In this document: positions 3,724 through 32,737 of the stretch, in pieces
How positions within the stretch are numbered: position 1 is the stretch's first letter
How the letters are laid out: each line of letters begins with the position of its first letter
Source: a virus
Lineage: Duplodnaviria; Caudoviricetes
DNA: 64,000 bases
Reading direction: 5' to 3' (one strand)
Virus record (IMG/VR): IMGVR_UViG_2974508059_000001
Location: 32,001-96,000 of that record
The notes under the pieces: generated by a model
Database searches by the model: none
Seen by the model: the letters and a program-made list of their open reading frames with translations, nothing else
What the model was told of the DNA's origin: nothing
Program-made: the position numbers and the translations under genes

Positions 3724-4326
3724 ATGTCACAGCGCAAAAAGAAACCCGCTTATAATCCACGTAAACTTGCACGTGAGCGTTTAGAGAAGCTGATGGCGAG
3801 CATCTTCTACGTTCAGGATATGTTCACCGCCGAGTCGGGTAAAATCGCAAAACGTTTGGATATGGACTTAGCCGAAATCACCGGCACCACCGAACTGGAT
3901 GCGTATAAGCGTGAACAGACTGAGCGTTCGAAAGCCGCCTACATCGGCCTTATCAGTCAGGTCAGTAAAGACCTGTCAGCCGTCATCGTCGCTGCCGACA
4001 ATGCTGCGGGTCAGGTTGTTGCTGACTTGAAAGTGCGTCCGTGGAAAGAGATGAAGGATGCGGCGTTTATCGCTGAATTGGCATTGGAGCACCACTCCAC
4101 GGAAGCTGCAATCGCCGGTCAGAAATACACCGGTCTGATTCTGGAAATCATGCAGGACTACTTCCGCAACATCGAATTCGTCTGCCGTGAAGTCAAAGCG
4201 GGCCGTTCGGTTGAAGATGCGAAGAAGACCCTGACTGAAAATATCGCGAAAGAAGCAGAAGTTGCTGCGGCAGCCGCTGCTGAAGTTGCGTCTGCTGAAA
4301 AGGAAACTGTCGATGTCGCAGAATGA
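3724..4326 (+). CDS. Hypothetical helical protein with basic N-terminus
   Basis: TAAGGA SD, 200 aa ORF, typical codon usage. Confidence 0.8.
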   Translation: MSQRKKKPAYNPRKLARERLEKLMASIFYVQDMFTAESGKIAKRLDMDLAEITGTTELDAYKREQTERSKAAYIGLISQVSKDLSAVIVAADNAAGQVVADLKVRPWKEMKDAAFIAELALEHHSTEAAIAGQKYTGLILEIMQDYFRNIEFVCREVKAGRSVEDAKKTLTENIAKEAEVAAAAAAEVASAEKETVDVAE

Positions 4327-6331
4327 AGGGCGTCCGGGCTCCGGTCGCGTTGCGCCGTCAGAGAGCAATGATACTGCTCAACTGATGGCCATCATGGAAG
4401 CTAACCCGTCTCTGGGCATTGCTCAGGCCCGGGTGTTGCTTGACGAACAACGTGGGCTCGCTAAGCTGGAAGAGCAAGAGAACGCTCAGCCAGTAGTCGC
4501 CCCTCCTCAACCTACTGTGCGTGAAGATATCGCTCCGGCAAACATCACACACCAACACGTTCACGTGGAGCCGCCTGAACCACTGCAAGCTGCTCCGCTG
4601 GACGTGAAGCCGCAGGAACAAGCGGTGCAGCCGCTTCATCCCCCTATTCGCTCTACAGCGTTTATGGATGCGGCGGTGGCCGCCGCTGCGCCTGCTGCCC
4701 CTTCTTTTTTGCCTCCGGAAGAGCCACAGCCTGCCCCTGAGCCGTTGACTGCCCAACCGGTAGCCCAACCTGCTCAGACCGCAGAGCCACTCTTGCCAGA
4801 GCAGGAAGAAGAACGTGTGCCGGATTATCAAAAAGCGGGTAAGCCGACCATCCGTCTGGGCAAGTCACTGGCCACCAGTGAAATCAACGCTATCGATTCT
4901 GAAGACCAAGAACTCCTGCTACTCGGCATGGGTGATCTGGTGGGGCCGATGCAATCCCTGCCGGAAATGCAAAAGCACGTGAATCAGTTCTTCTCAAGTT
5001 TGGAACGTGACCCGCGCACCAATGCGCCACTGTTCCGTTCTGAGGAAGAAGAAAGCACGTTCTCACGCCTGCAAGCGGCACTGGCAAATACCCCGCCGAC
5101 TGCCCCGGGTACGCGTAGCGCCAGCTTCGACATGGCAATGGGTCGTGAAGACACGGTGTGGAACCAAGGCATTCAGCCTGACGGTCAACCGTACCGTGGT
5201 GTGGTCAGTGTGAACACCGGCGGTAAAGGTGCTATCGCTGCACTGCGCCGTAAACGTAAGTCAGGTTCGCCGTCTACGGTCTTCCTGCCTGCGTCCGGTT
5301 TCTGCATTAGCTTCCGTGCCCCACACGAACGTGACTTCTGTGACTTCGATATTCGCATGGCGCTGGAAACCGCGAAAGTGGGCATGAGTTCCTACGGGTT
5401 GCTGATGTCTGCCTCGTCCGGTATCTACGTGCGTAACATCGTTGAGTTCTGTCTGCTGTTTGTTGAAGGCTGTTCACTGGAACTCGGCGGGGATGACCTG
5501 AAGACCACCCTTATCGATCGTATCGATAAAGATGACTACTGGTTCATTATCGTCGGCATGTTGGCGGCGAAATTCCCATCGGGTATTCCGTGGGGCTTAA
5601 GCTGCCTGAACCCGGCGTGTGACCACGTGCAGGAAGGGCGTCTGAATCTGGCCCGTGCGATTCGCATGGGAACCAGCTTACTGGCTGATGAGCAGCGCCA
5701 GCTGTATTACCGTCAGCGCAGTGAAGATGCCTCTGAAAACACCATCACGTACGAAGAGCAAACGCAGTACCGCCAGCAGCACAAGTCGGTGGCCGCGTCT
5801 ATCTTTGAGAAAGACGGTGTGACGATTGAGTTCGGTCGTTCTTCGCTGGGTGACTTCTTTGATGTTACCGAAGAGTGGGCGGATGAAATCAACGAAACCA
5901 CTACGCGGGCGTTGACTGACTATGCCACCGAAAAAGACCGTGAGACCCATCTGCGTGTGAACGCGGAGTCTCGTCGTCTGACGCGTTACCTGCACATGGT
6001 GAAATCCATTTCGATTGATGAAGGCGAAGGTCGGGTGTCGAAAGCCACCAACCGGGCTGAAATCAAAACCATGCTGGCAGAGATGTCGTCTGACCGTCTG
6101 TACGTGACCGAGTTCGAAGCGGCGGTAACGAAGTTCACCGAGATGTCTCGCTTGGCGGTGTTTGGCTACATGGGCAAGAAGTGTCCACAGTGCCAGCATT
6201 CGCAGGGTGAGGCCGACGGTGACTTCCGCGGTATCGTGACCATCTCACCGGACAGGGTTTTTTTCGCGCTATCTCGTGCGGTGTCCGCAATGCAGAGGCT
6301 TTGGCTCAGTCAATACGCCGATATTGGCTAG
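4313..6331 (+). CDS. T4 gp26-like baseplate-hub/tail assembly chaperone with Pro-rich N-terminal extension (probable phiKZ gp77-like)
   Basis: AAGGA SD before ATG 4313. LPASGFCISFRAP, DYWFIIVGMLAA..CLNPAC..RLNL, CPQC and near-terminal DRVFF resemble gp26-family motifs. Family call made by eye. Confidence 0.6.
   Translation: MSQNEGRPGSGRVAPSESNDTAQLMAIMEANPSLGIAQARVLLDEQRGLAKLEEQENAQPVVAPPQPTVREDIAPANITHQHVHVEPPEPLQAAPLDVKPQEQAVQPLHPPIRSTAFMDAAVAAAAPAAPSFLPPEEPQPAPEPLTAQPVAQPAQTAEPLLPEQEEERVPDYQKAGKPTIRLGKSLATSEINAIDSEDQELLLLGMGDLVGPMQSLPEMQKHVNQFFSSLERDPRTNAPLFRSEEEESTFSRLQAALANTPPTAPGTRSASFDMAMGREDTVWNQGIQPDGQPYRGVVSVNTGGKGAIAALRRKRKSGSPSTVFLPASGFCISFRAPHERDFCDFDIRMALETAKVGMSSYGLLMSASSGIYVRNIVEFCLLFVEGCSLELGGDDLKTTLIDRIDKDDYWFIIVGMLAAKFPSGIPWGLSCLNPACDHVQEGRLNLARAIRMGTSLLADEQRQLYYRQRSEDASENTITYEEQTQYRQQHKSVAASIFEKDGVTIEFGRSSLGDFFDVTEEWADEINETTTRALTDYATEKDRETHLRVNAESRRLTRYLHMVKSISIDEGEGRVSKATNRAEIKTMLAEMSSDRLYVTEFEAAVTKFTEMSRLAVFGYMGKKCPQCQHSQGEADGDFRGIVTISPDRVFFALSRAVSAMQRLWLSQYADIG
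6256..6297 (+). other. Putative programmed -1 ribosomal frameshift site (T TTT TTC) with downstream hairpin
   Basis: In-frame gtT TTT TTC at 6259-6265; TGCGG-tgt-CCGCA stem at 6277-6289. Confidence 0.6.
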
Positions 6332-6744
6332 ACAGCGAGCACGTTTCAACCGAGACCATCATCACGACCTTAAAGCTTGATGCCACGTCACTCTTTAAAA
6401 GTCGTAAAGGCAAACCCATCACGTATCAGGAAGCACACGACACGTTGTTGGGGGCGTTCGACGATGCCATTGAACATGACACCGGGCCAAACTCGGTGTT
6501 CTTCTCTGACTTCGACGACCCGCTGACCGGTTCTCTGTTGGACATCTGGTTGGACACGTACATCCGTGAGCGAATCGGTGAACGGTTCAACCTGTCGTTT
6601 GATGAATTCCTTGACCGTCCCCGTTATGAAATCATGCGCATGATAAGTGTCGTTGGGCGTTATAACGCGGTGGTCAATCGGGAAATCAACAAAGCAGGGA
6701 AAGATGTTGACTCGTTGGAACAACAGTTGCACGGGAAAACGTAG
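6265..6744 (+). CDS. gp51/gpT-like ORF, probably expressed as a -1 frameshift extension of 4313..6331 (ORF track start TTG 6301)
   Basis: -1 frame is open from 6223 to 6744; no well-spaced SD or early ATG; FNLSFDEFLDRPRYE motif; followed by a terminator. Confidence 0.65.
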   Translation, partial: RAISCGVRNAEALAQSIRRYWLDSEHVSTETIITTLKLDATSLFKSRKGKPITYQEAHDTLLGAFDDAIEHDTGPNSVFFSDFDDPLTGSLLDIWLDTYIRERIGERFNLSFDEFLDRPRYEIMRMISVVGRYNAVVNREINKAGKDVDSLEQQLHGKT

Positions 6745-6750
6745 CATCGT

Positions 6751-6777
6751 GGGGGCTTCGGCCCCCTTTCTTTTTTT
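6751..6777 (+). terminator. Rho-independent terminator (UUCG loop)
   Basis: GGGGGC-ttcg-GCCCCC then T-rich run. Confidence 0.9.
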
Positions 6778-31433: not shown

Positions 31434-32737
31434 TGTTCGATAGGTTCCAGACAATTGTCAATAGCCACATCAGCCGGGCAATTGCGGCACCTGCCATCAA
31501 CTACAGCGCTATCGTCACCATCAAGGGCATCACGCTCAAAGTGTTGAAGGTGCGGGACGTTATCCACAGCAGTAACTTCGTGGGGGCGGTCTCAACGATA
31601 ACGCACATCACGATGGCAGTCCCGACCTCCCAGATGCGACTACTGACCACCCGTGCCAACGGAAACATGAATGTCAAACTCCTTACCTTGGCCGGTGAGA
31701 AGATTTTGAACACCGTGAACTACAATGGCGTGGTGGTCGGTACCCGTGACCCGGACATGGAATCCCCGACGATGTTCTTGGGGGAGTCTGATGATAAGTC
31801 GGTGGCCATGGTAACGCTTGAGCTGATGCCAGCCTCACTGTGGTACCAGCGTCTGAAGAACGTGGGCGGGACGTATCACGGGACGGATGGTCTCACGCTA
31901 CTGCGTAAACTGTTGGTTGATACCCTGCCCAATCAGCAGGCCGAAGCCGGCATTGTGCACTCGATTCAGTACGAGACGGAAGAGCAGCAACTTTATCGGG
32001 ATCTGGTGATTCCCGATTCCATTACCTTCTTGGAGGTGTTTGATTACATTCAGGAAAAGTATGGGGTGTATTCGAAAGGGCTAGGCGTGTTCCAGTATTT
32101 CAATAACTGGTTCTTGTTTAGACCTTACGATGAAACCAAGTTTAACAAGGCCGGATTGAAACTGGTGGTGATGAACCTGCCGCGTGAACGCTCGGCGAAC
32201 ATTGACCGGACGTTACACAGCGAAGCCAGTGTGCGGTATATCATCACCGGCGGTGATACGCTCTCAGAGGACGTGCAAGACCAGAACGCTCTGAATCAGG
32301 GCACCGGTTATCGGGTGGGGTCGCTAAGGGCCTTAGACGGCCGTACAAGCTCGTTTACGCCGGGTGAGGTATCGAAGACTACACCGGACAAGTTCGTGTC
32401 GCAGGCTGCCCCTAATAAGCACGCCTCCGGCATGGTTAACGCTCCGGTACTCAAGAAGCATTACGCTGACCACGACAAAGACATTCGCTCCAAGCTTGCT
32501 ATGCAGGATGGGCGGATTGTGAAGGTGACGTGGAACCAGTCAATGCCGAACATTGTGTACCCGGGCATGCCGGTGAAGTTTATGTATGCCAACGACGTGG
32601 GAATGTACACCCGCTTTGGCACCGTATTGGGTGAGGTCTATCACGCCTCGGTGGATGGGCAGACGTTAGCGTCCGGTCGCTTTAACAGTCAGACCGAACT
32701 GACGCTGTGGCTCTCCAACTCAAAAATAACAAACTGA
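31433..32737 (+). CDS. Tail/baseplate protein, probable baseplate hub (phiKZ gp101-like)
   Basis: Beta-rich; YIQEKYGVYSKG and IVYPGMPVKF resemble gp27/VgrG-type hubs; synteny. Confidence 0.6.
   Translation: MFDRFQTIVNSHISRAIAAPAINYSAIVTIKGITLKVLKVRDVIHSSNFVGAVSTITHITMAVPTSQMRLLTTRANGNMNVKLLTLAGEKILNTVNYNGVVVGTRDPDMESPTMFLGESDDKSVAMVTLELMPASLWYQRLKNVGGTYHGTDGLTLLRKLLVDTLPNQQAEAGIVHSIQYETEEQQLYRDLVIPDSITFLEVFDYIQEKYGVYSKGLGVFQYFNNWFLFRPYDETKFNKAGLKLVVMNLPRERSANIDRTLHSEASVRYIITGGDTLSEDVQDQNALNQGTGYRVGSLRALDGRTSSFTPGEVSKTTPDKFVSQAAPNKHASGMVNAPVLKKHYADHDKDIRSKLAMQDGRIVKVTWNQSMPNIVYPGMPVKFMYANDVGMYTRFGTVLGEVYHASVDGQTLASGRFNSQTELTLWLSNSKITN

Follow-up and report, generated by a model that had tools for sequence, protein, structure and literature searches.

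A probable programmed -1 ribosomal frameshift at a conserved T-run in the Chimalliviridae core gene cg18

The window analysed in this study is a 64,000-nucleotide (nt) stretch of viral DNA (Duplodnaviria; Caudoviricetes; positions 32,001 to 96,000 of the IMG/VR record IMGVR_UViG_2974508059_000001), which carries a gene for a protein of 672 amino acids (aa) orthologous to phiKZ gp77, SPN3US gp39 and Goslar gp081, that is, the core gene cg18 of Chimalliviridae, which are nucleus-forming jumbo phages. A programmed -1 ribosomal frameshift at a T-run near the 3' end of this gene, giving a short and a long form of the protein, is the reading that we favour (probability about 0.78), and recoding at the T-run by the ribosome or by RNA polymerase, taken together, is highly probable. 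The shift with its two products had been proposed in an initial annotation of the window, and the comparison of 39 loci supports it. Programmed -1 frameshifting is a known kind of event, and its occurrence in cg18 is rated as new. No published description of a cg18/gp77 frameshift was found in the literature on phiKZ, SPN3US, Chimalliviridae and jumbo phages, in agreement with the initial annotation, which was aware of none for phiKZ-like phages.

Conservation of the run and of the -1 arrangement was analysed in the window, GenBank phages and IMG/VR contigs, covering 20 or more genus-level lineages, phiKZ, SPN3US and Goslar among them; the GenBank part represents at least 12 named genera plus unclassified phages, and the IMG/VR part includes two marine or environmental clades. 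In 39/39 loci, a downstream open reading frame (ORF) is in the -1 frame relative to the upstream gene and overlaps it, by 49-259 nt in the 20 loci where this was measured. A T-run occupies the codons homologous to Phe650-Phe651 at every locus and comprises 7-8 T in 29 loci, 6 T in 3 and 5 T in 7. The sequence T_TTT_TTN is present in 30 of the 39, and the other 9 (5 T, or 6 T preceded by A) offer U_UUY only. The expectation that orthologues would keep both the slippery run and the -1 relationship was thus borne out throughout.

The features of the gene that bear on the shift are as follows.

4313..6331, plus strand: zero-frame ORF, short form of 672 aa, from ATG 4313 to TAG 6329-6331.
6258..6265, plus strand: slippery run TTTTTTTC, T_TTT_TTC in the 0 frame, codons Val649-Phe650-Phe651.
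6265..6744, plus strand: -1 frame extension, 159 codons plus stop, joining Phe651 to give the predicted 810-aa long form.
6266..6331, plus strand: overlap read from column entropy as dual coding, comprising the tail of the C-terminal helix (0 frame) and the first part of the extension (-1 frame).
6273..6297, plus strand: small hairpin CTC-G-TGCGG-TGT-CCGCA-ATGCA-GAG, present, neither significant nor conserved.
6751..6777, plus strand: intrinsic terminator closing both frames, stem 6751-6766 plus T tail.

All coordinates previously given for the ORFs, heptamer, -1 frame, candidate start and stem were reproduced from the window sequence and its translations. Codons 647-651 of the 672-aa ORF read GAC AGG GTT TTT TTC, where the T7 run (6258-6264) is followed by C 6265, so that the heptamer T_TTT_TTC (6259-6265) stands in the 0 frame; it is the sole slippery heptamer of the form X_XXY_YYZ within the ORF overlap. 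The -1 frame becomes open only at 6223 and stays so up to TAG 6742-6744. The earliest start-like codon in it is TTG 6301, only 2 nt past GAGG (6295-6298), and the first in-frame ATG lies at 6634, which agrees with the former judgement that this ORF has no usable start. The predicted products have 672 aa and 651 + 159 = 810 aa with the junction ...SPDRVFF|RAISCGVR, as the initial annotation had it, and the single terminator that it placed behind both ORFs was found. The -1-frame peptides predicted for the window phage are AISCGVR and NAEALAQSIR.

Conservation of the site exceeds coding needs, as reflected by its presence at all 39 loci, by a Phe-Leu variant and by the avoidance of similar sites elsewhere. 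One clade has Val-Phe-Leu in the protein, encoded by GTT TTT TTG; T7 is kept although the residue changed, so it is the run itself rather than the residues that is conserved. Among the Phe-Phe pairs in the long ORFs of the window (50 kb), 31/32 start with TTC and the sole TTT-TTC is the slip site, although TTT accounts for 37% of the Phe codons in the same 50 kb. Nine homopolymer runs of at least 7 nt occur in the 64 kb, and the slip-site run is the only one situated deep within a long gene. The slip site goes beyond chance expectation, and the avoidance of TTT-TTY suggests that U-runs are generally slippery or costly in the window phage.

The position at which the -1 frame opens was also informative. 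It opens 5-13 nt upstream of the run in JM-2012, pVa-21, phiKZ, Centimanus, SPLA10 and Psa21, and two codons upstream of TTT in a marine clade. Because the frame opens only just before the run in several phages, the T-run is the only plausible entry point into it. Counted from the run, the extension comprises 149-181 aa in all clades and is alignable and homologous family-wide. In Pseudomonas phage RVTF4 (locus L028, 2640-2840), the extension is open from the T-run as far as a stop near 2817, whereas the annotated downstream gene goes on in a different frame; this interruption reflects either another frameshift within the extension or a sequencing error there.

Translation of the -1 frame directly from the run is indicated by the pattern of variation. 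In 14 distinct SPN3US-like sequences, third-position column entropy was 1.33 upstream and 1.37 downstream of the overlap, and in the 64-nt overlap entropy was 0.38-0.68 at all three codon positions; because variability is low at all three, the overlap is read as dual coding. The first -1 codon past the run is CGN in these SPN3US-like phages, so that Arg is kept with only synonymous change, and the 0-frame residue is A, G, V or E, depending on the sequence. The extension starts with Tyr-Pro or a similar pair in most other clades. In phiKZ-type phages, the motif GGPExQP...N.D.R.SRL...NGHV...FG follows directly after the run, far upstream of the first possible start, which in the phiKZ extension is codon 86; the predicted phiKZ -1-extension peptides come from YFGGLEVKPDGVVNDLR.

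These data bear on the alternative that the locus holds two separate overlapping genes, the second of which is translated by internal initiation or termination-reinitiation as an unfused, free product of about 90-147 aa. Two separate hypothetical genes are what the databases annotate, in every GenBank record except that of SEGD1, and the window does contain TTG 6301. However, no start codon for the extension is conserved in position or type across the loci, and a Shine-Dalgarno sequence is almost always missing; the conserved ATG with a Shine-Dalgarno sequence, which the initial annotation had named as the sign of an independent second gene, was not found in the orthologous loci. In the window, GAGG is too near TTG 6301 at 2 nt, and across clades protein conservation begins at the T-run, upstream of every candidate start. 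A -1 relative frame at all 39 loci is not required of independent genes, nor is the opening of that frame just upstream of the run in many clades expected of them. Public gene calls for the extension give products of 89-136 aa with inconsistent starts. We consider separate genes very improbable. In phiKZ (locus L015, 4407-4649), the RefSeq product PHIKZ076.4 (80 aa) covers only the latter half of the conserved 165-aa extension, and the first half is unannotated.

The breadth of the family was determined by an exhaustive HMMER search, which returned 969 clusters at 50% identity, and 103 diverse representatives of these clusters were aligned. Phe650 and Phe651 are at least 90% conserved, and the rare representatives without Phe-Phe at the protein level are P0037, P0099, P0126 and P0129. 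The 0-frame tail beyond Phe-Phe always comprises 8-21 aa, and no fused long form was found among the 103 diverse homologues or longer proteins. Given this range of tails and the lack of fused forms, selection appears to maintain the two products, or at any rate the split. Single-protein scans of viral contigs returned no loci.

A further explanation is that the gene is truly one continuous ORF, broken by a homopolymer sequencing error or a recent mutation. Homopolymers are error-prone, and SEGD1 is annotated with one fused coding sequence; nevertheless, the same split is found in 39 loci sequenced independently on different platforms, runs of 5-8 T always preserve the frames, and all 103 homologues end shortly past Phe-Phe. 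The SEGD1 fusion itself arises from an odd patch upstream of an intact T7C rather than from the run. An artefact or pseudogene is therefore hardly credible. The patch in SEGD1 (locus L003, 2958-2976) is 18 nt long with a net gain of 1 nt and fuses the ORFs into a 795-aa coding sequence, and SEGD1 is otherwise identical to SPN3US over 400 aligned nt. The patch may reflect faulty assembly, or SEGD1 may be a natural mutant that makes only the long form.

Several observations weigh against a ribosomal shift. Downstream RNA structure is neither significant nor conserved in the 31 loci that were folded. The 60 nt past the site in the window fold at -16.1 kcal/mol (z = -0.26 versus shuffles) and are not unusually stable; z values of the other 30 loci range from -2.75 to +1.08, mostly near 0, no downstream fold is shared, and pairings at the hairpin position are different or absent in other clades. 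The stem TGCGG (6277-6281)/CCGCA (6285-6289) with its CTC/GAG extension, which the initial annotation had brought forward, is indeed present, and a role for it as a stimulator is not supported. An Rfam search gave no match, and no conserved Shine-Dalgarno-like stimulator was seen in the 8 nt upstream of the run. In the 7 loci with 5 T only (e.g. CTT TTT ATT, GAG TTT TTC), the pattern X_XXY_YYZ does not occur. Evidence for the trans-frame product is indirect, coming from the detection of Goslar gp081 and gp082, where the extension is represented by one peptide that is not a junction peptide. Finally, RNA polymerase slippage on T7-T8 may also fit the sequence. Because no stimulator is evident in the folds, in Rfam or in the upstream 8 nt, the shift seems to rest mainly on the U-run.

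In programmed transcriptional slippage, the host polymerase or the phage non-virion RNA polymerase would add one U on T7-T8, and the same 810-aa protein would result. The 7-8 T in 29 of the 39 loci and the failure to find an RNA stimulator of ribosomal shifting are in keeping with this mechanism; one added U yields exactly the -1 frame, and avoidance of in-frame T-runs is likewise expected. Known polymerase slippage typically requires 8-9 or more T's, however, and the runs in the 7 loci with 5 T and the 3 with 6 T fall short of this. The run also keeps its register with the codons across loci, which matters for tRNA re-pairing and not for a polymerase. On balance transcriptional slippage is unlikely. 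Because the arrangement persists with 5-6 T's, a ribosomal shift is the best single mechanism, and we infer that the ribosome rather than RNA polymerase slips.

According to the ribosomal mechanism, ribosomes on the cg18 mRNA would reach GUU UUU UUC (Val649-Phe650-Phe651), and in a minority of passages tRNA-Phe would re-pair one base back on the U-run, after which translation would resume at CGC (6265) in the -1 frame. In clades with 5 T, only a single tRNA-Phe slip on U_UUY would be possible. The efficiency of slipping is perhaps 10-15%. The two proteins would share residues 1-651. The 21 final residues of the 672-aa short form would complete a confidently predicted C-terminal helix, and the 810-aa long form would carry the 159-aa extension, a predicted flexible linker plus small helical domain, in place of the short tail. 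The extension would probably equip a sub-stoichiometric share of the copies with a second binding module.

Both parts of the locus have been detected in virions of Goslar. In the published liquid chromatography-tandem mass spectrometry data, gp081 is represented by 24 peptides with 49% coverage and a median of about 22 copies per virion, and gp082 by 1 peptide and about 3 copies per virion (bioRxiv 10.64898/2026.04.21.720040, Table S4). Our check showed that the gp082 annotation covers the 3' part of the gp081 -1 extension, situated behind CAG CTT TTT TTT ACC; the tryptic junction peptide predicted for Goslar is YYDLIALDVPQLFFYPK. The mass-normalised gp082/gp081 ratio is about 0.14, which is compatible with the long form making up about one copy in seven. 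The Grad-seq supplements contain no entry for phiKZ gp77.

To our knowledge, the tail chaperones G and GT are not found in virions. Because tail assembly chaperones (TACs) do not occur in virions, the presence of the Goslar cg18 product there argues against a classical TAC role. In Goslar (locus L043, 28078-32918), one core block encodes cg18 gp081 (about 22 copies per virion), cg19 gp079 (about 15) and the virion RNA polymerase subunit cg20 gp078 (about 21). The similar estimated copy numbers hint that cg18 may belong with packaged or ejected proteins rather than with the baseplate. A bolder proposal can also be made, in which the phage's own non-canonical multisubunit RNA polymerase adds the U in programmed transcriptional recoding and, separately, the long isoform is a fixed-number adaptor (about 3 per virion) linking a gp26-like hub or ejection protein with a further virion module, whereby the stoichiometry of an unmodelled internal complex would be set; we regard it as speculative and doubtful.

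The 672-aa protein matches phrog_8054 (E 1e-272), and the PHROGs label for both parts is unknown function. In the literature, cg18 is entered as a 'hypothetical protein' among the 68 core genes defining Chimalliviridae, with phiKZ gp77, Goslar gp081 and RAY gp267 as members (bioRxiv 10.1101/2023.02.24.529968, supplementary Table 3). The window comes from an Erwinia-type jumbo phage. The closest record for the gene is that of Erwinia phage pEa_SNUABM_11 (Wellingtonvirus), with 76.6% nucleotide identity over the gene, and the extension protein is 92% identical in one IMG/VR contig. The neighbouring genes encode an SF2 helicase and a phiKZ gp78-like protein and, past the terminator, a gp79-like protein and a virion RNA polymerase subunit, which confirms the earlier remark that no tape-measure gene stands alongside.

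Three further features of the upstream protein were recorded.

4484..4852, plus strand: Pro/Gln/Ala-rich disordered N-terminal segment (about residues 58-180), predicted local distance difference test (pLDDT) below 50, alignment gaps.
5603..5620, plus strand: Cys431 and Cys436 (C-x4-C), first half of a putative zinc site, at least 90% conserved in the 103 homologues.
6182..6193, plus strand: Cys624 and Cys627 (CPxC), second half of the putative zinc site, a motif shared by T4 gp26.

Cys 431, 436, 624 and 627 are near-invariant in the 103 representatives, and the two pairs, separated by about 190 residues, point to a structural zinc site. The disordered insert of about 120 aa (4484-4852) is typical of SPN3US/Wellingtonvirus-type proteins, and in phiKZ-type orthologues it is missing or shorter.

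Structure prediction with AlphaFold2, using 103 sequences, gave a mean pLDDT of 82.7 for the 672-aa protein, with residues of about 60-170 disordered and an ordered domain at 180-672. The predicted C-terminal helix (646-669) includes Phe-Phe and the whole 0-frame tail. Because this helix holds both, the long form is predicted to lose most of it. The model of the extension alone was of low confidence (pLDDT 57), with the first 55-90 residues flexible and the last 60-70 residues helical, and it is predicted to be a flexible linker followed by a small helical domain.

The initial annotation had compared the upstream protein with the T4 gp26 family. No meaningful match to solved structures was found by Foldseek against the PDB, a wide VIA-align search or a PDB profile search. 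Beyond orthologues, a Foldseek search of BFVD matched predicted, not solved, structures labelled 'baseplate hub assembly protein, T4-like' or 'baseplate hub subunit' (E 1e-4 to 3e-2, probability 0.9-1.0, target-normalised TM score about 0.5). PF12322 (T4_baseplate) was the top but weak Pfam family, matching 2/73 relatives with a best E of 0.0011; the 672-aa protein of the window had no Pfam match at E up to 0.1, PF12322 included. Language-model neighbours in a protein-atlas search include PF12322-bearing clusters (score 0.90), and hhalign against T4 gp26 gave a probability of 14-18% only. The order CPxC ... FF ... end is common to T4 gp26 and the C-terminus of the 672-aa protein. The gp26-like assignment thus has distant support from predicted folds and the language model, but the profile threshold was not reached; the models point to a distant gp26-like protein that is not a PF12322 member. 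Taken together with the Goslar data, the cg18 product is probably a distant T4 gp26-like, zinc-binding, virion-associated protein.

The resemblance of the extension to gp51/gpT, which had also been put forward, was not recovered. As a gp51 candidate, it gave hhalign probabilities of 0.1% with the extension profile and 0.5% with the upstream profile, and it belongs to no Pfam family. Membership in the G/GT family of TACs was likewise rejected. The short and long form would share their N-terminus through a 3'-proximal -1 shift, as inferred from the comparison of loci, which is a trait of tail chaperones. However, neither part nor its relatives showed a TAC domain, profile or family; the upstream protein is 4-5 times larger and occurs in virions, and the gene adjoins helicase and virion RNA polymerase genes rather than a tape-measure gene. 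The tail-chaperone interpretation of the initial annotation is not supported.

A programmed shift in cg18 would have implications for jumbo-phage biology and annotation. If it is true, nearly every genome record of Chimalliviridae mis-annotates the cg18 locus, where the extension is currently annotated either as a small gene of its own with arbitrary starts or in shortened form (in phiKZ, the last 80 codons), and the family has a previously unrecognised sub-stoichiometric protein of the 810-aa class. The slip site offers a handle on an uncharacterised virion-associated, gp26-like, putative zinc protein. It would also be a natural example of a bare U-run on which -1 slippage in bacteria is efficient enough, with no obvious stimulator.

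Known systems share individual traits with cg18. TAC pairs are made by -1 frameshifting in lambda (gpG/gpGT), P2 (E/E+E') and Mu (gp41/gp42). As in these, a conserved -1 slip site lies towards the 3' end of cg18, a gene related to phage morphogenesis; the products would be a plentiful short form and a scarcer one with a C-terminal extension, sharing their N-terminal part, and the extension is without its own start. In contrast to lambda G/GT, cg18 adjoins a helicase and virion RNA polymerase subunits instead of tail tube and tape-measure genes, its upstream product has 530-700 aa versus about 140 aa and no TAC domain, its Goslar orthologue is found in virions, and its slip site is a U-run versus G_GGA_AAG.

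The T4 gp26 comparison rests on fold-level likeness of predicted models, faint PF12322 matches, language-model neighbours and the CPxC ... FF layout, and T4 gene 26 also has two products (26 and 26', RefSeq annotation). T4 gp26 has only 208 aa versus 672 aa, though, and the second T4 product comes from an internal in-frame start and not from frameshifting. T4 gp26 ends in ...KCPECGKTHAHVIRGLKEFFELL, where the Phe-Phe pair is encoded by the non-slippery TTC TTT, with no -1 ORF.

In Escherichia coli dnaX, a -1 slip on a homopolymeric heptamer produces the isoforms tau and gamma in a fixed ratio. The cg18 shift would be of the same bacterial type and likewise give two isoforms, but it lengthens the protein, whereas the dnaX shift shortens it, and dnaX depends on an upstream Shine-Dalgarno-like element and a strong downstream hairpin, neither of which is evident at cg18. 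The slippery site of HIV-1 gag-pol is U_UUU_UUA, in a eukaryotic system with downstream structure. The cg18 system is bacterial and its run is down to 5 U's in some clades, yet the central step would be alike, namely the slipping of tRNA-Phe on a U-run.

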